Shown here piece by piece: positions 1,379 to 35,860 of a stretch of 64,000 nucleotides of DNA (positions within the stretch are counted from its first letter, which is position 1; each line of letters starts with the position of its first letter). Made by a program: the position numbers and the translations under genes. Source of the DNA: Candidatus Alkanophaga volatiphilum. GTDB taxonomy: Archaea; Halobacteriota; Syntropharchaeia; Alkanophagales; B39-G2. The stretch is taken from NCBI GenBank assembly GCA_029259545.1, contig JAPHEE010000005.1, forward strand, positions 1,143 through 65,142, written 5' to 3'. The notes beneath the pieces were generated by a model. The model had not been told where the DNA came from. It saw only the letters and a list, made by a program, of their open reading frames with translations, and searched no databases.

Positions 1379-2740
1379 ATGAAGTTCGAGCTCGATGAAG
1401 AACAGAAAACGATAAAGGAAGCAGTCCGAGAGTTTGCTGAGAAGGAGATAAAGCCGCGGGGACGGAGTTCGACAAGTCTGGCGAGTTCCCGTTCGAGATT
1501 CTGAGGAAAGCAGCGAAGCTAGGATATATTGCAGTATGGATACCTGAAACGGCGGTGCAGGGCTCGGCATGCTCGAAAACGCAATCATAGCTGAAGAGTT
1601 CGCAAGAGCGGACAGCGGCATAGGCTACGCAATATCATTGACTGCGATCGGCTGTCCGATGATCTACCGTTTCGGAACGGAAGAGCAGAAGGAGAAGTAC
1701 TTACCTTACCCCGAATCCCAAAGGGCGAGAGCATCAGTTTCCTTGGCGAGCCTGATGCAGGGAGCGCTGTCGCCGCTATGAAGACCGTTGCCAGAAAGGA
1801 AGGCGACGAGTATGTGATCAGCGGCAGTAAAATGTTCATCACGAATGCAAAAATTGCGGACTGGGGTGTCGTGTTTGCGAAGACCGTGCCTGAGGCAGGG
1901 CACCGGGGTATCAGCGCCTTCATCGTCGAGACTTCAACGGAGGGCTTCGAGGCAACGCCGATCGAGGGCGGCATTGTCAAGATTCTTGCTCGTGTTGCGA
2001 GACGTGCGCGTCCCGGCGAAGTGGTTGGCGAGGAAAATAGAGGCTTTTACCATCAGTCGCTAAGAAAGCCTCTCACTTTAAGGGGGATGAATTAGGGTGG
2101 GAATTTTTTATACTTCAAAGTGAGACGATCAAGTGCAAACGAGCCATGGGCTATATGCTCATGGTAGGGGCTGCGGTGACCCAGCCCGGAGGGGAGCGCA
2201 GGTTCATCCTGCACACTCTCCAACCTCCCAAGGCTTCCGGTGGAAGCCCTAGTCGGGGAGGAGGTCACCATCTCATGGAAACATTTAACGAGACAAGGAC
2301 ACATACCGCCGCTGTCCACGTCGGCATTGCCCAAGGCGCTTTCGATAGAGCTCTTGAATACTCAAAGCAGCGAGAAGCCTTCGGCAGAAAGATCTGTGAA
2401 TTCCAAGCGATACAGCACAAGCTTGCGAACATGCTCGTGAAGATCGAGACCGCCCGCCTCCTCGTGTACAAGGCAGCGAGTATGATAGATGCAGGCTTTA
2501 CGCCTACGAAATGGACATCAATGGCAAAGCTCGTTGCCGGTGAGGTCGCCGTCGAGGTGTGCTTAGAGGCAATGCAGATACTCGGCGGGCATGGTTACGC
2601 CGTCGAATACGATGTCGAACGTTTCTTCCGCGACGGAAGAGCAGGCACCGGTTGAAGGTACTTCGGAAATCCAAAGGAACATCTTGGCGAACATCATCCT
2701 CGGAAAGCTCCCGGAGGTCAAAAAAAGATCTTTAAAGTAG
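1379..2740 (+). pseudogene. acyl-CoA dehydrogenase, decayed (several frameshifts plus a MITE insertion)
   Basis: ACAD-like pieces lie in different frames: MKFELDEEQKTIKEAVREFAEKEIKPR, GGAGLGMLENAIIAEEFARAD, MKTVARKEGDEYVISGSKMFITNA, RDVRVPA/GEENRGFYH, then ETFNETRTHTAAVHVGIAQGAFDRALEYSKQREAFG...LGGHGYAVEYDVERFFRD, then EGTSEIQRNILANIILGKL* in a further frame. Removing 2051-2268 restores ttt tac cat ctc atg gaa = FYHLME. Confidence 0.85.
2051..2268 (+). mobile_element. MITE family A, copy 1 (IS200/IS605-like non-autonomous element) inside the ACAD gene
   Basis: Starts CATCAGTCGCTAAGAA directly after TTTTAC and ends GGGGAGGAGGTCAC. Excision restores the ACAD frame with no duplicated target. 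Homologous copies lie at 19934-20110 and 35495-35721. Internal TATA-like TTTTTTATAC at 2104-2113. Confidence 0.8.
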
Positions 2741-2803: not shown

Positions 2804-4495
2804 TCAGCTGTAAGTGAACTTCCTAGTCAGGTTTTCTTTCGTGAAGATATCTTCCTCTCTTACTTCTGCCTCCCCCCCCAGCCCCAGCCTCTTCCGGCGC
2901 TCTTCCTCCTTTACCTTCTTCATGCGCTCTCGGTCCCTGAGGATGCCGTCCGTCAGCAGGATGAGCTCAACAGCTTCGACGGCGCCAATGAGCATCTGCC
3001 GTTTTATGCTCAGCGGCTCGATGATTCCTTCCTTGAGGGCGTTTGTAAAAAGTACCTCGCCGTTCTTGAGGCAGATGCCGATGTGTGGATCGTCCTGATG
3101 CATGGCTTTGAGTTTTGCGACGGCATCGAGGGCATCAAGCCCGCAGTTCTCGGCAAGCGTCCTTGGAATCGCCTCGAGCGCCTCCGCGAACGCAAGCATT
3201 GGGAGTTGCTTCTTCGTCATTTCCCTCTGCGCCTCCTTACGGAGACGTAAGGCAAGTTCGATCTCGATGGCGCCGCCGCCGGCGACCACGAATGGCTCGT
3301 CGAAAACGCTGGCGACGGCGTGTGTTGCCTCGTAGATGAGGCGACTATGCTCCGCCGCTATCTCCTTGGTGCCGCCGCGTACGAAGAACGTGCAGGCTTT
3401 TGCCTCCTTACAACCCTCGAAGAATATTATGTCTTCTTCCGAAATCTTCTTGTATTCTACGAGCTTCGCAGCGCCCAAATCTTCTTTCTTCAAGTCCCAG
3501 ACGCTTTTCACGATGTTCGCGCCGGTTGCCAAGGACAAGTGATTCAGCTCCCCATGTCGGTCCACGCCCTTTATAGGCATGATGCCGTGCTTTGCAAGCA
3601 GCCCCGTCACCCTGCCGTCTATTGCTTTCATGCAGATGACAACGTTGGCGCCCACTTCCACGATCTTGCCGACCATCCTTCCTAGAATCTTCTCTTCCTC
3701 CTCCAGAAACTCAGCCATACGGTTCGGGTCGAGCACCACATGCGTGACGAGCTCCGAGCGCTCCGTGGTGAGGGGGTCTTTGATTATTGCGATCTTCGCA
3801 TCCTCGATCCTCCGAGGGGCGCCCGGCGGCAGCATGTTGAACAACACGGAGCCGTCGATGAGCTTCGTGTCCTCAAATCTGTCTCCCTCTACCTCCTTTA
3901 TCGCTATGTACTCATCTATGTCCTTTTTCGCCTCCTTGACGCACTTCACAGCCTCGACCACGTCACGACAGAGCCTGTCATTGGCATACTCCTTCAAAGA
4001 GGTCCTCACGACATTATATCGCATCTCCTCGGGCGAGAAGAAATCTTCGGAAACTGAAAGGTCCTTCATCAGCTCTAAGCATACTTCCATCGCTTTTTTA
4101 AAGCCATCGAAGATTAAAACCGGGTGCAAGCCCATACGCAGGAGAGAATCGGCTTTTTCAATTAGTTCGCCTGCGATTATCAGCGTCGAGGTCACCCCGT
4201 CGCCGTGAACATTGCCGTGCGCCTTAGCTAATTCGATGATGAGTCTAGCGGCAGGGTGCTCTGCGATGAGTCCTGTGATTACAGAATAGCCGTCCTTCGA
4301 GATCAGGAGGGGGCGAGCGTCCTCTGCCAAAATCTTGTTCATCCCACGGGGTCCGAGCGTCGTCCTCACAGCGTCGCAAATCACCTTTGCTGCAATCATA
4401 CAGCTCTCTCTCGCCGCTTCACCGAGCATGCGCTCGTCTGCCGCCTTTTTCGTGTACGTCAGCAGGGAGTCGAGTCGGAAACGCCTTTCTGCCAT
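2804..4495 (-). CDS. ths: thermosome subunit (group II chaperonin)
   Basis: 563 aa. Contains TLGPRGMNKIL, GDGVTSTLIIAGEL and VAGGGAIEIELA, and a charged C-terminal tail. Confidence 0.9.
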   Translation of the reverse strand: MAERRFRLDSLLTYTKKAADERMLGEAARESCMIAAKVICDAVRTTLGPRGMNKILAEDARPLLISKDGYSVITGLIAEHPAARLIIELAKAHGNVHGDGVTSTLIIAGELIEKADSLLRMGLHPVLIFDGFKKAMEVCLELMKDLSVSEDFFSPEEMRYNVVRTSLKEYANDRLCRDVVEAVKCVKEAKKDIDEYIAIKEVEGDRFEDTKLIDGSVLFNMLPPGAPRRIEDAKIAIIKDPLTTERSELVTHVVLDPNRMAEFLEEEEKILGRMVGKIVEVGANVVICMKAIDGRVTGLLAKHGIMPIKGVDRHGELNHLSLATGANIVKSVWDLKKEDLGAAKLVEYKKISEEDIIFFEGCKEAKACTFFVRGGTKEIAAEHSRLIYEATHAVASVFDEPFVVAGGGAIEIELALRLRKEAQREMTKKQLPMLAFAEALEAIPRTLAENCGLDALDAVAKLKAMHQDDPHIGICLKNGEVLFTNALKEGIIEPLSIKRQMLIGAVEAVELILLTDGILRDRERMKKVKEEERRKRLGLGGEAEVREEDIFTKENLTRKFTYS

Positions 4496-4515
4496 CCTTC
4501 ACTATTTCGTGTCCC

Positions 4516-4528
4516 GCATTTAAATCGG
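4516..4528 (-). promoter_or_regulatory. candidate TATA box of the thermosome gene
   Basis: The minus strand reads CCGATTTAAATGC, centred about 26 nt upstream of the ATG at 4495. This spacing suggests a leaderless or very short-leader mRNA. Confidence 0.4.
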
Positions 4529-4807
4529 TGGCGCGCAGCCCGAGCCGACGGGCTTCCGCCCCCGATTCGGCGGCATCGGATCCACTCGTGCAGCCTTTCC
4601 TCCTCAGCGCCTCGTGGTGGCTATTAGTCTGCTATCGGCGGGTTCGCGTGCTTGCGGCGCTCGCCGAGGTCGTGCGCGCCGCACGCACGCCGAGCCGAGC
4701 CCGTTGAGTCCTGCGGGTGCCTCCTGAAAGCAAGCCCCGAGCCCGTCGGGGTCGCAACCGAGATGCGGCGGGGTGCTTCACAAGATGTCGCCGAGGAAGC
4801 TCCCTTG

Positions 4808-5047
4808 ATTTATCTTCCTGTTGCTTGCAAGACCCTGGGGATACAGGGGAGGTGGGTGGGAAAATTAAATACTCTGGATATATGGTGTAACGACGTAACA
4901 GCCGCAAGGCTGGGCAGCCGTAGGCTGGTAGAAGTAGCCCGTGAGCCGTAAGGATAACGGTAGTGGCGGCGTGAACCCGCCCGTGGGATAAAGCTCGTAG
5001 AGAGCAAACTCCCACGAAGCTCCGTCCGTTAGGGCGGAGTAGTTCAC
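4808..5047 (-). ncRNA. putative omega-RNA (reRNA) scaffold / right end of the decayed tnpB element (unit B1)
   Basis: Begins at the tnpB C-terminal codons (…HADLNASVNY; GTGAACTAC) and runs about 240 nt past the ORF. It is homologous along its whole length to 17749-18012 on the opposite strand. Similarity stops abruptly after ...GCAAGCAACAGRAAGATAAAT in both copies. Confidence 0.45.
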
Positions 5048-6343
5048 GGAGGCGTTCAGGTCTGCGTGCATCTTGCCGCACGTCCGCACACGAACTCTTT
5101 CCCCTTCCTTTCTCCCCTCTCTTCACATCTGGAGCATGTCGTTGATGTCCCGTAGGCGTATACTTCGTAACAAACACGTTGTTCCACAACACTTGCCTCT
5201 TAGGTGGTCGTATGCTTTCCTGAAAGGGAGTGTAGGATACTTGTTCCTGCTGAGCTTACTGCTGCACAGCATGGCAGCCTTCTGGTTTATGTAATAGTTC
5301 CTCTATGAAGACGAACGGGCGGGTACTGCGAAATGTACCTGCATATGCCGCCCATAACCGTTTTGTAATGGTTCTCCAGCGCATTCCCAAGCTTCTGCTT
5401 GGTTTTTCTCCTGTCCTTGTTGCTCCAGTACTCCACAATGCCTAAGAACTTGTGATCCACGAGGCTGCCGTTCTTATCCAGTACGGCGACGCAGTACGCG
5501 TCGGTGTTAAAGTCTATCCCTACGGCAAACTCTGGGCGTACATTTCAAACTCCTTGACGAAAGAAATGAGCAAGGTAGTATTCTTCCCCTTACCTTATCA
5601 GCTCAGCCCCGTTCGCAAGCTCCACCGGATGTCAGATTCTTGACGACCCAGAATGCTGTTGTTCTTCCCGAACCGGCGGTAATCCTCACGGTTCCATCCT
5701 CGTAAAGGTAGTAAGACCCGTTCCTCGCAAGCCTGATCGGAAGCTCTTCGAACTTCGGGGGTACAGTTCTCCCAAGAAGCCTGAAAGCCTCTATGACCTT
5801 GTCTATGCAGTTGATGATGACCTGAGAAGGTAGAGTGGGATACTTTTGCCTCCAGATGGTAGAAGTACTTCTGCACGACCATCTTGTTGGAATACTTCCT
5901 TTTTACGACGGGCGCTATGTCCTTCATCAGCTCGTTAGCCACACCGTGAACTACCCCAAGCTGAAGCTTGGGGCTTCCTCCCGCTGGAGCCAGCTTCGCA
6001 GCCTCCTGCCTTTGAGCGGCAGTTCACGGCTCCACCCCGGCGGGGAGCGGCATGTTCACGATGCCCCATGCCCGCTCTCCTCCCGTCTCAGCCTCCACAT
6101 CCGGAAGTTCGGAAGCCTCCCGAACGGGAAGCCGAGCAGGACGCATGCGTGCTATGCGGGGGCCACCCACGCACGTCATAATTACTAGAATATAAATATG
6201 ACGCCATTCACCCCCAAGCTGAAGCTTGGGCACTCTGGCGTCAAATCTTGTAGAATTCGTCGAGCCTCCATCTGTCCTCCTCGCTTACTATCAGCCTCCT
6301 CGTGTTCGTAACCTGACCTTGCTGGGAATTTTTTCTTCGCCAT
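5040..6343 (-). pseudogene. tnpB: tnpB (IS200/IS605 OrfB-type RNA-guided nuclease), frameshifted and carrying a nested insertion
   Basis: Minus-strand pieces in different frames: MAKKKIPSKVRLRTR.., ANELMKDIAPVVKRKYSNKMVVQKYFYHLEAK, VIINCIDKVIEAFRLLGRTVPPKFEELPIRLARNGSYYLYEDGTVRITAGSGRTTAFWVVK, FAVGIDFNTDAYCVAVLDKNGSLVDHK (RuvC-I, about 5500-5523), and TSTTCSRC...VCGRCGKMHADLNASVNY (zinc finger plus RuvC-III, about 5041-5110). Confidence 0.75.
5946..6230 (+). repeat. nested omega-like unit (C1) bounded by an identical 19-nt hairpin direct repeat
   Basis: CCCCAAGCTGAAGCTTGGG lies at 5954-5972 and 6212-6230. The unit starts GTGAACTAC at 5946. An AT-rich TATA-like tract, AGAATATAAATATG, lies at about 6187-6200. 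The unit is antisense within the tnpB pseudogene. Confidence 0.6.
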
Positions 6344-6777
6344 ACCACTTTGGTGAAGCGGTATTTGTAGTTTTCTCGCTTGGTGAAGCGAAAGTATATA
6401 TGGGAGGTCTGTGGAATGGTAGTCCCTGGGGGATTTGCCGCGTCAGCCGGCCCGCCACCGTCTCCGCTCCGCCATCCTCGCCGTGCGGAGAGCTACCGCG
6501 CATCGGTGAATCCAACTCCGTGAGTCTGATGCGGAGTAGGACGAGGGTTGGGAGATGGTGCGCGGGTGTGAGCACGGCTCGGGACGGATAGGGTGCAAGC
6601 TTCCGTCTTCAGACGGGAGAAGCTGACTTCTCTTCCTCTCTCCCCCGTGCCGCCGTCGTGCGTGCGTCGGAGCCTCGTTTGGAGGTTGCTGTCGGGCGGG
6701 TCGGAAGTTGGACGGCGGGCGGCTCGGCTCGTATGCAGCTCTGCGGCGCTGCTAGGGGGCGTCCTCGAAAGTTTTAT

Positions 6778-7887
6778 ATGCACTCCGGACTAGTTTTTTT
6801 CGGCGTGGAGGAGGTTGTCAGGGTCGCTGTGAGCGGGAGGCTGGGACCCCGCCGGAGGGTCAAGCTCCGCAGACTTTCTTCCGTCACAGACCTCGCCATA
6901 GTCAAGAAAAGGGGCAGGTACTGGCTGAGGGCTGGCGGGCGGCTTATCAGGGTCTTTTTCGACGATGTGGAGACGGTTGACGAGGCTCTGAGGGGCTTGT
7001 GGGAGGTTGAGGGGGCGGAGGTCGTAAGGAGGGGTAGAAGCAGGGTACTAATCAGGGTGCACTTCTGGAGGCGGGTCGAGGCTGCGGGGGTCGGAGGCGC
7101 CGGGGGCGGAAGCAAGCCCGAGCTCAAGCCCGAGCTCAAGCAGTCCGAGCCCAAGCTAGAGCCCGGGGAACCAAAGACGGTCGTCAGGTTGGAGCTGAAC
7201 GGTGCGAAGAGGGTGGTGGCTGCGACCGTGCTGAGTGGCGGGCGGGTCGTTGCCGAGACCAGCTTCAAGCTCGGCAGGAGGGTCGCCGACAGGCTCGTGA
7301 GCTACGTGAAGAGTTTTGAGAAGCCGATAATCGTGTGCGGGGACGAAATTCCGGGGTTGAGGGCGAGGGCGCGCCGCGCCGGGATCGAGGTCGTCGAGCC
7401 TTTTGACGGCAGCAGGAGGGCGGGGGCGAGGATCAACGTGAAGCCGCTCCTGGTCGGGGTTCTCGTGCTGCTGGCGACGGCTGCCCTCGCCATGGTTTAT
7501 TACTCTGCGTTCGGCGTGGCGACAATAACGGTCGAGAAGAAGCTGGACGTGAGCGTTGACGTGAGGGACGTTGTGGTGTACGTTCCGGGGATGGGGACGA
7601 AGGACATAGGGAACGTCACGGTGACCGTTTACGGCGCCGACACCGACTATCGGGTGATATTGCAGCTCGCAAACCTCGAAAAGTCCTGCGGCATCAGGGT
7701 CATAGCAATTCAGGTCTACGACGGGGACACGGGCGAGCTCAGGGGGATTCTCACGCCGATCACGCCGTCGCTGATAATGGACGAGTACGACGAGGGGAGC
7801 AAGACGTACGAGCTCAAGCTGTTCTACGTCGCCATACTGCCCGGCAGGGTGGAGGTTGCGGTGCAGGCGTCCGCCGAGCTGATGTAG
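6778..7887 (+). CDS. hypothetical protein; C-terminal TM helix plus beta-rich domain paralogous to 9393-9932
   Basis: GC-rich ORF. The tail INVKPLLVGVLVLLATAALAMVYYSAFGVATITVEKK...VEVAVQASAELM aligns with the whole 179-aa product of 9393-9932. Contains a KPELKPELKQSEPKLEPGEPK linker. Start is uncertain (ATG 6778, GTG 6805). An internal GTG at 7438 could give a separate 150-aa product. Confidence 0.55.
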   Translation: MHSGLVFFGVEEVVRVAVSGRLGPRRRVKLRRLSSVTDLAIVKKRGRYWLRAGGRLIRVFFDDVETVDEALRGLWEVEGAEVVRRGRSRVLIRVHFWRRVEAAGVGGAGGGSKPELKPELKQSEPKLEPGEPKTVVRLELNGAKRVVAATVLSGGRVVAETSFKLGRRVADRLVSYVKSFEKPIIVCGDEIPGLRARARRAGIEVVEPFDGSRRAGARINVKPLLVGVLVLLATAALAMVYYSAFGVATITVEKKLDVSVDVRDVVVYVPGMGTKDIGNVTVTVYGADTDYRVILQLANLEKSCGIRVIAIQVYDGDTGELRGILTPITPSLIMDEYDEGSKTYELKLFYVAILPGRVEVAVQASAELM

Positions 7888-15979: not shown

Positions 15980-16363
15980 ATGCAGATGAGTCAGAGCATA
16001 AGGAGTGAAGTTTATGAGATATCTGAGGAGATTTTAGCCAAGGTAAGAGAGTTGATGAGCGCGGATTTCTCTGAAGTGCTATCAATTTTAAAAGCGGTTT
16101 CCGACCCTACACGGTTGCGTATACTTAAATCTTTGCTCCTAGAGGAGCTATGCGTCTGCGTGTTCGTGGAGACCACAAAATGCAAGTATCCTGCCCTCTC
16201 TTACCACTTAAAGACGCTGAAGGACGCCGGATTGGTAACCTCGGAACGAAGGGGCAGCTTTTTGATATACAAGCTAACTACCCTAGGAAAATATGTTTTA
16301 AAGCTCATATCCATGCTGGAGGAATATATACGATCTGGGCTCAAGTCCGATGATACGGATTAA
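15980..16363 (+). CDS. ArsR/SmtB-family transcriptional regulator
   Basis: LKAVSDPTRLRILKSLLLEELCVCVFVE...LSYHLKTLKDAGLVTSERRG. Confidence 0.9.
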   Translation: MQMSQSIRSEVYEISEEILAKVRELMSADFSEVLSILKAVSDPTRLRILKSLLLEELCVCVFVETTKCKYPALSYHLKTLKDAGLVTSERRGSFLIYKLTTLGKYVLKLISMLEEYIRSGLKSDDTD

Positions 16364-18647
16364 GGCTGAGGCTCTCACCATTTTTGCGCTTTCGATGCTA
16401 TGCCCGCCTGTCTGCATAGCGTTGCATGGCACAGCGCTGCACGTCCTCATTACCGAAATATGCCCTGATCCGTACGGCAGTGACGAATGCGAATACGTTG
16501 CGCTCACGAATCCACTCCCTTACGCCGTGCGGCTCGAGGGTTGGCAGCTGTGCGACCTCCATTCCACCGTCAAACTGCCTGAAATTGCGCTGCAGCCCTC
16601 GCAAACTGTCTATCTAGTGAAGAACGTTTCCACTCTCGACGTAACGGCATTAAAAACATCCTTGGGTGCCGTCACGCTCAACAATGATGGCGACGCAATT
16701 TCGTTGCTCGACGAGAAGGGGCGATTGATAGACACTGTCGCATACGGCACCGTTCCGAGCGACATCCGCGGCTGGAGCGGAGAGCCGCTGAGAACGCAAG
16801 AAGGTATTGTTCTGCGCCGCAAGTCTGGGAACGAGGGCTGGAAGGATTCCGACTCTTGGAGGGACTGGTTTCCTGTAGCTTTCGAACATCGGGATAGAAC
16901 TGCTTTCAACGTAAAGACTTTTTCTTTTTTCGGCTGCGTAACAGCGTTCGTTTCGCCCGATTGCAGCTTTGAGGTGGTGTCAAGTGAAATAGAGAACTGC
17001 TCAAACGTAGTTTTTCTTAACGTGTACGAGTTTGAAAGTTTTCCACTGGCAGAACTTCTAGTGAGGGCAATAGAGCGTAACGTTACCGTTAAAGTCCTCT
17101 TGGAGGGGTCGCCTGTTGGAGGGCTGAGCGACGACACGCTGACGATTGCAAGAATCATTAAGGGAAGCGGCGGCGAGGTGCGGCTTGCGAGGAGCCGCCC
17201 TAAGATGTTCAACCATGCCAAGTATGCCGTATTAGACGGCGGTGTGCTCGTGCTTTCTGAAAACTGGAAGGGCGTTAGCATGCCCGTAAGAGAGACCCTT
17301 GGTGGCAATAGGGGCTGGGGAGTCATTATTCGTGACGAAAACGTATCTTCTTATTTCAAAGAGCTCTTCCTCGAAGATTTTAGGTTTAGCGAGCCTTTTA
17401 GCGGAGATGCTATGAGCGTCGGGATAGACGAAGGAAATGTCAACTACCACCTGCTAAAGCCGGTGGCTTGTAGTCCCCAGTGTGCGTTCACTGCCCACTT
17501 GGCTGCGTTCACTCACGCTCCTCGGGCTTGGTCGGGCTCGTGTGAGCGTCCGCAGCCAAACGCTCACACCGAACCGCTCTCATCGCCCTCTGAGCGCCGC
17601 TTGCACACCGAAGACATGAAGCTGGTTGACCGCAGCCCCTGTAATAGATACGCTCCTATTATATATGCGCTTCCGCAATTCCCTCACAAGCTGAAGCTTG
17701 TGGCACCCTTGCGGAAAAATGATGTGGAAAAAGGTGTGGAGGGTAGAGGTGAACTACTCCTCACTTACGCAAGGGGCTTCGTAGGGAGTTTGCAGGTCGC
17801 TGCCTGCCTTATCCCCACAGGCTGGCTTACGCCGCCACTACCCGCTATCCTTACGGCTCACGGGCTACTTTCAACAGCCTACGGGCGGTCCAGCCTTAAC
17901 GGCTGTTACGTCGTTATACCATACAACTTCAAATTTAAACTTAACTACCCGCCCGCCTCCCCTGTATCCCCACGCTCGCGCATGGAGTCTTGCAAGCAAC
18001 AGAAAGATAAATTTGAAGCACGCACCATATCCGGAAATTTTGAGGTAAGGACGTTTGTAGCACCCGAAAACATCCTGTGCGATGACCCCATTTTAGAAAT
18101 GATAAATTCGGCGAGGCGTAGAGTTTACGTTGAGATGTTCTCCGTGCAGAACGAATTTTATAGCGAGCTGAATCCTTACGTTGCAGCATTACTAGCGGCA
18201 GCACGCCGGGGCTGTGAGGTGAAAGTGCTTTTCGACTCCCGTGACTATAATTTAGAGCGGGGTGACGACAACGACGATGTCTTGGCATTTTTGAACGAAG
18301 TGGCAACTGCTGAGGGTTTAAAGCTAGAAGCAAGGCTTGCAGACCTCAAGGCGTTAGGCTTTAGCAAAATCCATAACAAGGGCATCATCGCTGACGACAG
18401 CGTTTTGATCTCATCGTTTAATTGGAACGAGGGCGCCCTCGACAATCGAGAAGTGGGCGTCGTCGTCACGAACGCCGAGCTTGCGAGCTACTTCGCAGAA
18501 GTCTTTCTCTACGACTGGAACGCCAGTGGCGGGAGCGTCAAAAAAGTCAGCAGCAATAAAACGAAAACCGTTGTCGGTACGGCTGTCGCCTTGGTCTCCG
18601 CCTATATTATTTTCCTCGTGGTCAGACGCCTCAGGTATGGGTGGTGA
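16350..18647 (+). CDS. secreted two-HKD phospholipase-D-superfamily protein with N-terminal lamin-tail-like domain; carries an IS-derived insert read through in frame
   Basis: Signal-like N-terminus. LITEICPDPYGSDECEYVALTNP resembles an LTD. HKD motifs FNHAKYAVLDG and IHNKGIIADD. C-terminal TM helix. About 190 non-protein-like codons (about 17.44-18.01 kb) lie between the two HKD halves. Confidence 0.75.
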   Translation: MIRIKAEALTIFALSMLCPPVCIALHGTALHVLITEICPDPYGSDECEYVALTNPLPYAVRLEGWQLCDLHSTVKLPEIALQPSQTVYLVKNVSTLDVTALKTSLGAVTLNNDGDAISLLDEKGRLIDTVAYGTVPSDIRGWSGEPLRTQEGIVLRRKSGNEGWKDSDSWRDWFPVAFEHRDRTAFNVKTFSFFGCVTAFVSPDCSFEVVSSEIENCSNVVFLNVYEFESFPLAELLVRAIERNVTVKVLLEGSPVGGLSDDTLTIARIIKGSGGEVRLARSRPKMFNHAKYAVLDGGVLVLSENWKGVSMPVRETLGGNRGWGVIIRDENVSSYFKELFLEDFRFSEPFSGDAMSVGIDEGNVNYHLLKPVACSPQCAFTAHLAAFTHAPRAWSGSCERPQPNAHTEPLSSPSERRLHTEDMKLVDRSPCNRYAPIIYALPQFPHKLKLVAPLRKNDVEKGVEGRGELLLTYARGFVGSLQVAACLIPTGWLTPPLPAILTAHGLLSTAYGRSSLNGCYVVIPYNFKFKLNYPPASPVSPRSRMESCKQQKDKFEARTISGNFEVRTFVAPENILCDDPILEMINSARRRVYVEMFSVQNEFYSELNPYVAALLAAARRGCEVKVLFDSRDYNLERGDDNDDVLAFLNEVATAEGLKLEARLADLKALGFSKIHNKGIIADDSVLISSFNWNEGALDNREVGVVVTNAELASYFAEVFLYDWNASGGSVKKVSSNKTKTVVGTAVALVSAYIIFLVVRRLRYGW
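17439..18012 (+). mobile_element. two tandem tnpB-3-prime/omega-RNA-like units (C2 then B2) inserted in the PLD-like gene
   Basis: Unit starts are GTCAACTAC at 17439 and GTGAACTAC at 17749. Hairpin CACAAGC-TGAA-GCTTGTG at 17685-17702, preceded by TATTATATATGC. 17749-18012 is the reverse complement of 4808-5047. The left boundary is uncertain. Confidence 0.65.
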
Positions 18648-18713: not shown

Positions 18714-19796
18714 ATGACGAGGGTTGTATTTTTCGACTTAGAAGGACCTTTATCGCCGCAAGACAACGCCTACGAGGTGATGTCAAGCATAGAGAACGGC
18801 GACAAGATATTTGAGGTCTTGAGCAGGTATGACGACATTATCTCGCTTGAGGGGCGTGAGGGTTATGAGGCTGGCGATACGCTTGCGCTCATCGTACCGT
18901 TTTTGGTCGTACATAGCATTTCCGAGCGAGATATACGAAAAGTTTCGGAGCGAGCGCCGCTGACAAGCGGCGCGAGGGAGCTTGTGTCGTGGCTTAAAAG
19001 TGACGGCTGGCAGGTTTTCATAATCTCAACGAGTTACGAGCAGCACGCCCTGAACATCGGGGCAAGACTCGGCATCGAGCCCGAAAACGTATTCTGCACG
19101 AGGCTCGACCTGAGCGAGCTGCGGCGTCGCCTCCCCGCCGAAGCCCTGACGCTCGTGCGGCGTGTCGAGAAGGAAATCTTGGAGCTCTATGAGACGGCGA
19201 GCAATGAAAAACACATCGTAGAAAAGCTCGATGAATTCTTTTTCGAAGAGTTGCCCAAGCATGGCTATGATGTTTTAGGGCTGCAAGTTGTTGGCGGACG
19301 CAGGAAGGTAGAAGCGATGCTCGCCGCCGCAGAAAAAAGCGGTGTGCGTCTCGAAGACTGCATAGCGGTGGGGGATAGCATTACCGACCAAAAAATGCTT
19401 GAAGAGGCGCGGAAGCATGCGGTTTCCGTCGCTTTTAACGGGAACGAGTATGCAGTGCCTTTTGCGAGCGTGGGACTTGCCTCCACAGACCTTAGATTTT
19501 TGCACGTCATCTGTGAGGCTTTTGCCAAGGGTGGGAAGAATGAGGTTAAGGGCGTTGCGGAAGAATGGGAGCAGCGCATCTCCGCACAGTCGCAAGAGTT
19601 CCCGCAAGGATTTGCGGATTTGTTGACGGAAAGGCTTGTTTCGTCGTTAAGAAGTGGTGAGTTGCGGGTCGCTGAAGAGTGGTATCCTCAGTTGCACTGG
19701 CTTGAAGGAGCGGGCGCTCGCAGAGTGAAGGAGATTATAAGAATCCATAAAAGCTTCAGAAAGCATTTGAGAGGCGCCGCCGCGAAGCTCGGCTGA
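18714..19796 (+). CDS. HAD-superfamily-like protein resembling EhaR-type proteins
   Basis: N-terminal VVFFDLEGPLSPQDNAYEV, which I recall as the D-x-EGP start of EhaR-like proteins, and a later VGDSITD motif. The family assignment is from memory only. Confidence 0.5.
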   Translation: MTRVVFFDLEGPLSPQDNAYEVMSSIENGDKIFEVLSRYDDIISLEGREGYEAGDTLALIVPFLVVHSISERDIRKVSERAPLTSGARELVSWLKSDGWQVFIISTSYEQHALNIGARLGIEPENVFCTRLDLSELRRRLPAEALTLVRRVEKEILELYETASNEKHIVEKLDEFFFEELPKHGYDVLGLQVVGGRRKVEAMLAAAEKSGVRLEDCIAVGDSITDQKMLEEARKHAVSVAFNGNEYAVPFASVGLASTDLRFLHVICEAFAKGGKNEVKGVAEEWEQRISAQSQEFPQGFADLLTERLVSSLRSGELRVAEEWYPQLHWLEGAGARRVKEIIRIHKSFRKHLRGAAAKLG

Positions 19797-34616: not shown

Positions 34617-35860
34617 TTAACAGCAACTCGCCACCGATACTTGCATCTTGTTGTAGGCTGTGAAAAATTCGTCTCTATCAGCGATAGAATCCCACGAGAT
34701 GTTCAACACAAATAAATACGAAGAAGCGTTTGTGTAGAAGTCAAAAGAATCGCCACCCCAACCTGCTGCCGCCTGCCTTGCCGTGTCTTCATCTATATGC
34801 AACTCAAGCATCGTCCTTATGAAAAACTCGCCAAGAACGTCAGAGCTTAGCGTCCAGCCTTCACCGAGCGGTAGTTCTGCATTTGTCACGTTCTTGCGGG
34901 GTTCTCGGCTGAAATATTTGTTGGGATGAATTATTTGTTCCGTTGTCGTGGGAGGGTCTAAGAAGGCAGCGTTCACAGCGTCCTAGCTTCCTTCTTCGTA
35001 TAAACGAGAGACGAAAATCTTGCCCTCGACGTAAGGAAATTCCATGAACGCGTCTAGGGTCCTTTCGAGGAGGCTTTCTGAAGACGAGCTCCCAAAAGCG
35101 GCAGCTTCGACGCTCGGCTCTCTCCCCTCATAAAGATCAGTAGTTATGCAGGCGTCGCCCTCGATGAGCGCCCGCGCTGCCATCAGTTCATCGAAAGTGC
35201 GTCTTGAGAGCAACCTCGTGAGATCAAAATGCTGGTCTTGGAGCACGTGCACGTATTCATGCGGCAGGATTTTCCGCAGCAAAGATGCCCTTTTTTCGGA
35301 AATAACGAAGACTTTGTTCCAGGGATCATAGTACGCCACTACATGTTCCGCTTTATGCTCGACGCTCACCTCCTTAATACTTTCATTCTCATCTGCCATG
35401 AACAATGCCTTTAACATCAGTTCACTTCTGTTATCGAGGTTGCTCGTCTGTTTGCCAATTTCCTCGGGACTCATGAACTCGTACGGAACTTCATGTGACC
35501 TCCTCGCTCAGCAAGGGGCTTCCACCGGAAGCCTTGGGAGGTTGGGGAGTGTGCCATAAGGCGCTCCCCTCCGGGCCGGGTCACGGCGGCCCCTGACCGC
35601 AGGTTGTACCCACGGCCTCGTTGCAAACCTATATTGTCTTCGGAGTATAAAAATTCTACTCCTGCCAGCCCCCCGCCCCAATTCATTCCGCCCTCAGGAC
35701 GAGCCTTCTTAGCGACTGATGGTAAAAGCTCTAAGCCTCTTATTTCCTCCACTTTGTGTATTATTTCAGCTTCATCCAATCTGATACACTGGTGATATGC
35801 CGTTACCAAGAGAGTAAGTACGAAAGCGGAAACGAGCGCAACCACTACAAGACGCTTCAT
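34617..35860 (-). pseudogene. secreted HExxH zinc-metalloprotease-like gene, split by a MITE and a further stop or frameshift
   Basis: Signal-like MKRLVVVALVSAFVLTLLV. HEYVHVLQDQH in the middle piece. AAGWGGDSF in the last piece. Removing 35495-35721 joins gag ctt tta cat gaa gtt ccg = ELLHEVPYEFMSPEE in frame. A second break lies at about 34977-34983. Confidence 0.7.
35495..35721 (-). mobile_element. MITE family A, copy 3, inside the protease gene
   Basis: In element orientation: GCTTTTAC|CATCAGTCGCTAAGAAGG...GTAGAATTTTTATACTCC...CCTCCCAAGGCTTCCGGTGGAAGCC...GCGAGGAGGTCAC|ATGAAG. TATA at 35645-35654. Confidence 0.8.

Follow-up and report, generated by a model that had tools for sequence, protein, structure and literature searches.

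What lies at the 3′ end of a decayed tnpB gene whose last recognizable codons appear to run on into a structured module that recurs elsewhere in the same DNA? This question is posed by positions 4808-6343 of the window, the 64,000-nt stretch of Candidatus Alkanophaga volatiphilum DNA analysed here. A preliminary description regarded the module, about 240 nt long, as the 3′ continuation of a minus-strand tnpB, with a guide RNA emerging beyond 4808. The module is instead an insertion on the opposite strand. We consider it very probable that the locus consists of nested IS200/IS605-family remains, in which a minus-strand tnpB pseudogene surrounds a plus-strand mini-element of C4-type parentage (named after the contig of a full-length relative) that carries an omega-RNA scaffold, and that it arose by the mechanism we infer below.

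The decayed tnpB is genuine. Its body occupies 5048-5945 of the minus strand, starts at 5942-5945 with a GTG at 5942, and displays the RuvC-I block VGIDFNTD (5500-5523), FVFIEEL, and a zinc ribbon with HADLNAS (5048-5190; the RuvC-III HADLNAS itself at 5048-5068), so that RuvC-I, -II and -III are all visible. A stitched read-through scores 38.5 bits against Pfam PF07282, the TnpB/Cas12f TNB domain, for which the cut-off is 26.3. The open reading frame is not intact: a whole-genome protein search returned it as four pieces in differing frames, with frameshifts and four in-frame stops (one TGA and three TAA). No DNA-level copy was found elsewhere in the genome, and close relatives are absent both from 40 related genomes, where the best tnpB matches are 28-35% identical, and from the genome_contigs collection. 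The tail at 4530-4807 (minus strand) folds no better than shuffled sequence (z = −0.04). Two mini-element insertions, 4814-5047 and 5946-6249, have struck this gene; the pseudogene had been drawn as far as 6343, an extent that includes the second of them.

The first insertion separates HADLNAS from the final codons of its own gene. Joining the flanks of 4814-5047 yields HADLNASINQGSFLGDIL and a stop in one frame, that is, HADLNAS-INQGSFLGDIL followed by a stop, with the displaced codons INQGSFLGDIL and the stop at 4778-4813 of the minus strand. Read on the minus strand, the pentanucleotide TTTAT at 4809-4813 together with base 4808 gives ATAAAT, the Ile-Asn codons of the pseudogene RuvC-III. 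On the plus strand the same TTTAT lies directly 5′ of the left end at 4814, and it occupies this boundary in nine of nine aligned family-A copies, whose flanks are unrelated on both sides. The module recurs, as had been noted, but the ends previously placed at 4808 and 18012 include a 5-nt target motif (TAM) and one further base; the elements proper are 4814-5047 and 17749-18006. In the same-genus genome an empty-site allele of the 4808-6343 nest was not found, and synteny there stops at the thermosome start codon.

The 234-nt insert, delimited by flank-inclusive alignment, by full-length parents on contigs C4 and C8, and by a covariance-model match, is a family-A mini-element of the PATE/MITE kind. 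Its anatomy, strand and boundaries are demonstrated. It is ORF-free and reads, on the plus strand, from a left end at 4814-4860 with palindromes at 4823-4848, through an archaeal-type TATA-like box, AAAATTAAATAC, at 4861-4872, to a predicted omega-RNA scaffold of ~135 nt at 4914-5047 (137.7 bits), which closes with a hairpin at 5021-5038 and the terminal GTAGTTCAC at 5039-5047. At least nine near-complete family-A copies exist in the genome and five in the same-genus genome. The 4814-5047 copy is 78-86% identical to dispersed copies, and its recurrence at 17749-18012, already apparent in the preliminary description, is borne out by an alignment of 265 nt at 77% identity; column identity is 83%, and the two copies stop sharply at a common point. 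Together with the copies on C4 and C3, it lacks the CCCCA...TGGGG left-end hairpin present in most others and, with that hairpin missing, may be mobile no longer. As we read these features, 4814-5047 is a tnpB-less IS200/IS605 derivative, a putative orphan omega-RNA scaffold lying antisense within an unrelated tnpB pseudogene. Across the entire window Rfam gave no match at its gathering threshold, and at a permissive threshold the single match in 4400-6800 was a chance miRNA (E = 3.9).

How, then, could the module have passed for the pseudogene's own 3′ omega-RNA, running on the minus strand from the codons VNY to 4808, with guides past 4808 and 18012? HADLNAS followed by VNY does resemble a RuvC-III motif, the frame stays open for 55 further codons, and the minus strand folds above shuffles (z = −3.8). 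The apparent VNY codons, however, are GTGAACTAC, the right end of the insert read in reverse complement, and none of 32 TnpB C-termini ends in NASVNY. Every tnpB with family-A ends has the opposite orientation to that model; the 4808 side carries the conserved TTTAT and a left end with a promoter; and the module shares 78-86% identity with other copies, but the identity of the pseudogene to tnpB genes with this scaffold does not exceed 35%. On the minus strand, moreover, conserved G-U pairs become A-C and the consensus fold energy falls short (−28 vs. −42). This account is highly improbable. A variant in which the module would be the pseudogene's own 3′ end, inverted, is ruled out by the family-A left end and by the identity to dispersed copies.

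Full-length parents show how the parts of the insert are normally arranged. The elements at C4:36536-38329 (TnpB of 421 aa) and C8:10491-11826 (432 aa) are tnpB-only and bear family-A ends: they start TTTAT|CT(G/T)CC(T/C)GTTGCTTGCAAGACCC, the bar marking the boundary, finish with GTAGTTCAC, and their tnpB reads toward GTAGTTCAC. In C4 the scaffold starts directly after the RuvC-III codons and scores 144 bits in the covariance model, vs. 138 for the window copy. Two further elements, on C28 and C29, encode both tnpA and tnpB and have ends related to family A; that on C28 combines a homologous left end, after TTTAA, with a right-end hairpin of the same type. Corresponding parent types for the other mini-elements of the window are a tnpA+tnpB element on C30 for 5946-6249 and an IS on C36 for 17439-17742. 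In the parents on C4, C8 and C28, TnpB retains an intact D-E-D triad and zinc ribbon. Genome-wide there are 39 TNB-domain hits, and all seven that lie within 350 nt of a hairpin plus GTAGTTCAC are upstream of it on the same strand. Many tnpB genes of this genome are broken, but intact ones, which the preliminary description needed for any activity of its guide RNAs, exist elsewhere: 16 open frames of at least 350 aa carry the TNB domain, two of them with family-A transposon ends. The genome also holds five strong Y1 TnpA hits.

The scaffold is recognizable by its fold. A covariance model built in the orientation that reads through the hairpin toward GTAGTTCAC and run on the whole genome detected 37 sites. 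Eleven follow a same-strand TNB domain at a distance of 109-231 nt; another 25 are orphans, with tnpB absent within 600 nt, which bears out the proposal that guide-RNA scaffolds exist here without their gene; and the sole site with an opposite-strand tnpB neighbor is 4914-5047. Of the 30 pairs of the scaffold, nine show two-sided changes; 96.6% of cells are paired, vs. 38-50% with slid partners, and the covariation score was matched by none of 500 shuffles. The fold is conserved, compensatory changes included, and it belongs to one strand. Conserved G-U pairs turn into A-C when read on the other strand, the consensus fold energy is −42.2 for the sense strand and −28.4 for the antisense, and single-sequence z-scores are −4.6 (plus strand) and −3.8 (minus strand). 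The common, covarying fold suggested as a check on the preliminary description thus exists, on the strand opposite to the one claimed.

The right ends of three element families share a terminal architecture, and the four module starts of the preliminary description are their reverse complements. The motif GTGAACTAC, a variable hairpin and GCTTC occur at all four loci in the window, as had been reported, and the hairpin is indeed variable in sequence, constant in position and covarying; these units belong to three element families, not one. Their common terminal design is GAAGC, an 8-9-bp hairpin and G-TAGTT(C/G)AC. The terminal GUUCAC, GUUGAC or GCUCAC covaries across families with an upstream GUGAAC, GUCAAC or GUGAGC. 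Genome-wide, GTAGTT(C/G)AC occurs at 54 sites against ~26 expected, and 36 of these follow a hairpin of at least 4 bp. Could this strand-specific structure serve as single-stranded DNA, in hairpins and guide-sequence pairings used by Y1 TnpA, and not as an RNA scaffold? The ends of IS200/IS605 elements act as top-strand DNA hairpins (PMC3119063), the position of a T-G mismatch is conserved in the terminal hairpin, and the C30 family has an identical hairpin at both ends. The strand-specific pairing could in part reflect such hairpins. The conserved structure, however, extends over ~130 nt and exceeds by far what TnpA needs: it includes four more helices, and a long-range helix closes it by pairing the 3′ terminus with an upstream hexamer, a pairing that covaries across families. 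It also falls on the tnpB 3′ end, the place from which omega RNAs are encoded (PMC10691335). As a replacement for the RNA scaffold the DNA role is unlikely, and the two roles can coexist.

The remaining mini-elements of the window repeat the pattern. That at 5946-6249 (minus strand), a miniature of the C30 tnpA+tnpB family, sits between the upstream region and the start codon of the pseudogene. Its right end, hairpin plus GTAGTTCAC, is at 5946-5973 (minus strand); TCTAC (6250-6254) precedes its left end; and an identical hairpin, CCCAAGCTTCAGCTTGGG, occurs at both ends, as in the C30-type element. By blastn it matches C30:17453-17507 and C30:19211-19415 plus multiple contig-end copies, and the covariance model matches 5946-6116 (minus strand) at 29.3 bits. 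Left-end flanks were compared in eight copies of the C30-type element, and the target motif is TCTAC or TCCAC in nine C30/B-type copies. Flanks of these and of the family-A copies show no duplicated target sequence. The four mini-elements (234, 258, 304 and 304 nt) have antisense read-throughs as their sole open frames. They lack terminal inverted repeats; both ends have palindromes close to the terminus, on one strand and nearer the 3′ end: the right-end hairpin stops 9 nt before the terminus at 36 loci, and on the left the palindromes are found 10-35 nt in from the start.

The other two form a composite. The second family-A mini-element (17749-18006, minus strand, 258 nt) has as its right end GTAGTTCAC, the reverse complement of 17749-17757; its target motif, which reads ATAAA on the plus strand, occupies 18007-18011, and the covariance model matches 17749-17888 (minus strand) at 138.5 bits. 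The family-B mini-element (17439-17742, minus strand) is homologous to both ends of a 1.48-kb IS on C36. On the minus strand it is led in by a spacer C (17748) and TCTAC (17743-17747), and it comprises a TATA-like ATATATAATA within 17655-17670 and a 215-nt structured module (minus strand) whose terminal hairpin and GTAGTTGAC lie at 17439-17466. The two make up a 567-nt insert in a PLD-like gene. Removing the 567 nt regains a 592-codon PLD frame, only if TTTAT stays with the target, and the same-genus ortholog (587 aa, 77% identity) is uninterrupted at this site, which points to recent movement of family A. The two empty-site reconstructions differ by one base, the PLD frame keeping one C/G at the junction and the NAS-IN join keeping none, a disagreement attributable to boundaries accurate to ±1 nt or to an extra indel in the pseudogene.

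The following history accounts for the nest. On the minus strand, an old insertion sequence encoding only TnpB has decayed to a pseudogene and was later hit twice by gene-less miniatures of other IS200/IS605 elements. The 4814-5047 miniature derives from a tnpB element of the C4 type that lost nearly its whole tnpB ORF and kept the left end, the tnpB promoter with its TATA box, and a final ~135 nt serving both as omega-RNA scaffold and as right end. Its insertion 3′ of TTTAT, without target duplication, would have been the work of a Y1 TnpA acting in trans, at a target that by chance was antisense to the Ile-Asn codons of the pseudogene RuvC-III. Transcription from the retained TATA box could then yield an RNA of ~150-175 nt, its 3′ end reaching ~16-20 nt into the flank past GTAGTTCAC as the guide.

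This polarity relocates the guides. The flanks beyond 4808 and 18012, formerly nominated, are the TTTAT target-motif side, and the scaffold reads toward the hairpin and GTAGTTCAC; guides would lie past 5047 on the plus strand and below 17749 on the minus strand. In the layout known for TnpB and its omega RNA, the guide follows the right end (PMC8612924, PMC10055086), which would place it for 4814-5047 at 5048-5067 (plus strand), GGAGGCGTTCAGGTCTGCGT, antisense to the HADLNAS codons. A second genomic match to this putative guide adjoining TTTAT was not found. A genome search with 62 putative 16-nt guides at up to two mismatches returned only chance matches devoid of a TAM, and "guides" that are the start of another repeat.

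Homing and a role in element retention have been shown for bacterial TnpB. By analogy, an intact TnpB from elsewhere in the genome, the best candidate being that of C4 (421 aa), could load the 4814-5047 RNA, and the loaded protein could cut the empty site left by excision, where TTTAT adjoins the guide match, so that repair would restore the element. Conceivably, the same anatomy could instead belong to inert copies that have neither a usable omega RNA nor a TnpB partner and persist by neutral drift and occasional TnpA mobilisation. The missing left-end hairpin of 4814-5047, guides that match nothing else beside a TAM, and the many broken tnpB genes are what one would expect of debris. Independent copies in two species have nevertheless kept the TATA box and a full scaffold with compensatory changes, intact TnpBs with near-identical scaffolds are present, and the PLD insert missing from the same-genus ortholog speaks of recent movement. 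Inertness is accordingly a possibility that we hold to be doubtful.

Family B raises a separate and tentative prospect. In two full-length copies, on contig C36 of this genome (G000) and at a locus of a different genus (L023), the 215-nt guide-RNA-like module lies upstream of tnpB and points away from it on the other strand; it has a TATA box of its own and does not overlap the tnpB 3′ end. It might be a working omega RNA, hence an uncoupled, divergently transcribed guide-RNA gene, a suggestion to which we give rather little weight. To our knowledge such a layout is canonical neither for TnpB, whose omega RNA is encoded downstream, nor for IscB, where it is upstream on the same strand.

For three IS200/IS605 families of Ca. 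Alkanophaga, these observations give the element ends at base level, name the target motifs (TTTAT, TCTAC) and supply a scaffold fold that has been tested. They also carry a caution for annotation: a reverse-complemented transposon right end (GTGAACTAC) can mimic the last RuvC-III codons of a neighboring tnpB. Here is another archaeal genome in which gene-less mini-elements with promoter and scaffold outnumber intact tnpB partners (25 orphan vs. 11 tnpB-adjacent scaffolds), a census that fits an idea already in print, in which guide RNAs and TnpB are modular and work in trans.

For elements of this known kind, a backward jump into a dead tnpB is nothing unusual, and omega-RNA PATEs have already been published (PMC10055086). 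PATEs were defined as protein-less IS200/IS605 derivatives (Dyall-Smith 2011, PMC3119063) and "often encode omega RNAs," with TnpB acting in trans (Meers 2023, PMC10055086). The mini-elements resemble them in the absence of an ORF and of terminal inverted repeats, in palindromes near the termini that lie farther from the 5′ than from the 3′ end, in insertion beside a 5-nt motif without target duplication, in derivation by core deletion of a tnpB element, in 3′ termini very similar between families, and in their propensity to insert into other mobile elements. As in omega-RNA PATEs, the guide-RNA scaffold is kept and TnpB would be needed in trans. They differ in their host, a thermophilic alkane-oxidising archaeon; in belonging to sequence families with no published description or Rfam match; and in a deletion that leaves almost nothing between the tnpB TATA box and the scaffold. 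The C4, C8 and C28 parents resemble elements of the IS1341 and IS605 groups (ISDra2, SisTnpB1; PMC8612924) in a T-rich 5-nt motif (TTTAT or TTTAA) ahead of the left end, in a parental scaffold that overlaps the tnpB 3′ end, and in a guide position outside the right end; SisTnpB1 of Sulfolobus islandicus, with a TTTAA TAM, is experimentally RNA-guided (10.1101/2023.03.06.531077). Unlike those elements, the ones in the window are tnpB-less, and the adjoining tnpB is an unrelated opposite-strand pseudogene. Finally, transcription in Halobacterium served to define sotRNAs, archaeal transcripts that overlap the 3′ end of IS1341-type tnpB in the sense direction (PMC4615843); a structured, presumptively non-coding RNA region at an archaeal tnpB 3′ end is common to both, a likeness of location, known here from the DNA.

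A decayed tnpB does lie on the minus strand, as the preliminary description proposed from TnpB hallmarks in broken frames. When 4500-6700 is read on that strand, VGIDFNTD (5500-5523) is followed 3′ by a CxxC...CxxC zinc ribbon and then by HADLNAS (5048-5068), the motifs being spread over at least three frames with in-frame stops among them. A six-frame genome search resolves the pseudogene into four pieces with one TGA and three TAA as internal stops, and the stitched read-through matches PF07282, the TnpB/Cas12f (TNB) domain, at 38.5 bits (cut-off 26.3 bits). By blastn of 4400-6800 against the genome, 5048-5944 is unique. Joining the flanks of 4814-5047 yields ...CGKMHADLNAS-INQGSFLGDIL and a stop, with a normal RuvC-III motif and C-terminus. 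Because the joined flanks give NAS-IN, the mini-element at 4814-5047 (plus strand) must have landed antisense on a TTTAT complementing the Ile-Asn codons of the pseudogene, and the apparent "VNY" ending is a coincidence created by the last nine bases of the mini-element's right end. An empty allele at this locus was not found in the same-genus genome, and neither searches of relatives nor folding of the pseudogene tail identified its own right end.

At its other extremity, the pseudogene begins with a start codon at 5942 (minus) and does not extend to 6343. The upstream part of that interval is not tnpB, because 5946-6249 (minus) is a second inserted mini-element, situated between the start codon and the region upstream of the pseudogene. 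It is recognized as such because, by blastn, 5945-6255 matches both ends of an element on contig C30 (left, 17453-17507; right, 19211-19415), along with several contig-end copies, and because left ends of this type follow TCTAC (8/8). In the C30 element, tnpA and a 472-codon tnpB frame occupy opposite strands. Elements of this type bear the hairpin CCCAAGCTTCAGCTTGGG at the left end and again at the right end, on one and the same strand, which is the classical geometry of a TnpA substrate. Yet another family supplies a third promoter-plus-scaffold unit at 6380-6627 (plus), which starts TTGGTGAAGCG..TATATATGG and ends CAAGCTTCC-GTCTTCAGAC-GGGAGAAGCTGAC; C10:26448-26629 matches it at 83% identity, and the 16-mer at its right end is present at 13 loci. 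With this unit just outside the interval originally delimited, 4808-6630 amounts to three mini-elements and one pseudogene. The neighboring thermosome gene (2804-4495, minus), 84% identical between the window and Ca. A. liquidiphilum, has a TATA-like TTTAAAT at 4523-4529, within ~10 nt of the apparent end of the decayed insertion sequence (...GAAGCCCGTCGGCTCGGGCTGCGCGCCAC); in the same-genus genome, the thermosome upstream region is wholly different, with a short 80-nt spacer.

The ~240-nt module reported to follow the last tnpB codons indeed recurs at 17749-18012. Segments 4808-5055 (minus) and 17749-18012 (plus) are 77-83% identical and share a sharp common end, ...GATAAAT; by blastn, the 1.85-Mb assembly of 89 contigs contains at least nine near-complete copies, and Ca. 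A. liquidiphilum, the sole same-genus genome among 40 relatives, contains five more. The module is not the 3′ continuation of the minus-strand tnpB, however. Reverse-complementing its supposed start, GTGAACTAC-hairpin-GCTTC, gives GAAGC-hairpin-GTAGTTCAC, and two full-length elements of this family (family A) carry its ends reversed around intact TnpB genes: C4:36536-38329 (421 aa, with PF07282 and PF01385 matches) and C8:10491-11826 (432 aa). Both start, after TTTAT, with CT(G/T)CC(T/C)GTTGCTTGCAAGACCC... and finish with ...GTAGTTCAC. Because tnpB in both reads toward GTAGTTCAC, the module's supposed 3′ end is the left end of the element and its supposed start is the right end. The C4 element has an extra 143-codon open frame (C4:36692-37120) that lies past the left end and runs into the start of tnpB; a counterpart of this frame is not obvious in the C8 element.

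The same polarity is found genome-wide. The 9-mer GTAGTT[CG]AC occurs at 54 sites against ~26 expected, 36 of them preceded by a hairpin of at least 4 bp, and the sequence past the 9-mer is different in each copy; all seven TNB-domain matches within 350 nt of such a terminus lie upstream of it on the same strand. A covariance model built from 12 family-A scaffolds in the GTAGTTCAC-terminal orientation gave 37 genome matches at E ≤ 0.01. Eleven follow a same-strand TNB domain at a distance of 109-231 nt, including tnpB families that lack the exact 9-mer, and another 25 are more than 600 nt from any TNB domain. The sole opposite-strand TNB neighbor belongs to the window match at 4914-5047 (plus), beside the pseudogene. 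Within the window, the model also matches 17749-17888 (minus) and 5946-6116 (minus), and gives no match at the unit beginning at 17439. Weaker matches at 2118-2268 (plus; 20.2 bits, E ~3e-4) and 35495-35640 (minus; 18.3 bits, E ~1e-3) suggest further omega-like scaffolds of other families. The preliminary description was right about orphan guide scaffolds and intact tnpB elsewhere in the genome, and wrong about strand, ownership, guides, and pseudogene extent.

The scaffold itself has a conserved fold. RNAalifold predicts six helices for the 12 scaffolds, which come from two species, one being a closing helix between the 3′-terminal GUUCAC and an upstream GUGAAC. On the consensus structure, 96.6% of cells are paired versus 38-50% after shifting partners by 1-3 columns; two-sided changes occur in 9 of 30 pairs, and none of 500 shuffles matches the observed covariation score or the observed compensatory-cell count. 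Covariation between the terminal and upstream hexamers is seen over 60 termini: the 49 ending in xxTCAC have GTGAAC or GTGAGC upstream in 30 cases and GTCAGC in one, and the 11 ending in xxTGAC have GTCAAC or GTCAGC in seven and GTGAAC or GTGAGC in two. The hairpin is thus variable in sequence and constant in position, as had been noticed, through covariation on the strand opposite to the one assumed. Several conserved G-U pairs (12/12, 11/12, and 11/12) become A-C on the latter, and the consensus fold energy is −42.2 kcal/mol sense versus −28.4 antisense (single-sequence folds, −70.8, z −4.6, versus −65.1, z −3.8).

Nine family-A copies aligned with 25-nt flanks all have TTTAT directly before the left end; flanks beyond TTTAT and beyond GTAGTTCAC are mutually unrelated, and none of the nine shows a duplicated target. 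Such TTTAT-side insertion without duplication is the behavior of IS200/IS605 elements, which insert 3′ of a 4-5-nt motif without duplicating it (PMC3119063). The element at 17439-18006 interrupts a two-HKD PLD-like gene. Removing 567 nt (17440-18006, equivalently 17439-18005) restores a single 592-codon frame, ...GIDEGN-DKFEARTISGNFEV..., and the ortholog in Ca. A. liquidiphilum, 587 aa long and 77% identical, is uninterrupted there (...KEMFEARTIFGNFEV...). The frame returns only when ATAAA (TTTAT on the other strand) is left in the gene, which identifies TTTAT as target DNA; element ends are stated ±1 nt because two empty-site reconstructions disagree by a single junction base. On the minus strand, the insert comprises family A, a spacer of C + TCTAC, and family B. 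This two-element composite is exactly 189 codons with no stop in the PLD frame, and the interrupted gene is therefore still one 765-aa ORF (16350-18647, plus). A separate repeat family starting AC(T/A/C)CCCACCGCCAAGG always follows ...TCAC (C1:80344 and six loci on C3, C10, C15, C34, C75, and C85), and one copy immediately follows a family-A element at its GTAGTTCAC end. This repeat family may therefore use the shared right-end terminus as its target motif, which would explain tandem arrays.

Family B, the third family, is represented at 17439-17742 (minus), a unit with homology to each end of the 1.48-kb element C36:3-1484. The C36 element and a copy from a different-genus genome (L023, G003:C7) are 81% identical over 1470 nt, with homology running from exactly GTCAACTAC to ...ATGTGGA. 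In both, tnpB (359/360 aa) is opposite in strand to a 215-nt module ending in a hairpin + GTAGTTGAC, which lies upstream and is divergently oriented; a small CxxC...CxxC ORF and a TATA box (TATTTAAAT) separate the two. The module folds better toward GTAGTTGAC (−72 versus −61 kcal/mol; 47 G-U cells versus 8 A-C cells). In the published TnpB layout, the omega RNA lies downstream of tnpB; these two full-length copies offer a lead toward a possible divergent omega-RNA arrangement. Reading the C36 tnpB through seems to require a frameshift around codon 15.

Besides IS200/IS605 ends, the gene-less elements have a TATA-like box (in the family-A mini-element, AAAATTAAATAC at 4861-4872, plus; in C4, TTTAAATA) and a scaffold that is conserved and homologous to the 3′ end of tnpB. 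By analogy with known TnpB and omega-RNA biology (PMC8612924, PMC10055086), Y1 TnpA would move them in trans; the genome has five strong tnpA matches, and contig C28 carries tnpA and tnpB in an element whose left end is homologous and follows TTTAA and whose right-end hairpin is of the family-A type. The retained promoter would transcribe the scaffold on into the flank, generating putative guides GGAGGCGTTCAGGTCTGCGT (5048-5067, plus), CTCTACCCTCCACACCTTTT (minus, below 17749), and ATTTCCTTCGTCTATCCCGA (minus, below 17439). Guides had previously been placed after 4808 and 18012, where the left end lies; the guide side is instead beyond 5047 (plus) and below 17749 (minus). TnpB from elsewhere, using such RNAs, would cut the vacated site, which combines the target/transposon-adjacent motif (TAM) with a guide match. 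RNA guidance has been demonstrated for an archaeal TnpB whose TAM is TTTAA. A genome search with the putative guides found no other TAM-adjacent match, which fits self-retention, not trans-targeting.

Rfam contains no family for these scaffolds. The window mini-elements belong to a known kind, the protein-less IS200/IS605 derivatives termed PATEs, because they show every defining PATE feature tested (PMC3119063) and because omega-RNA PATEs are already published: according to Meers et al. (PMC10055086), such elements "often encode omega RNAs," on which TnpB of other elements acts in trans.
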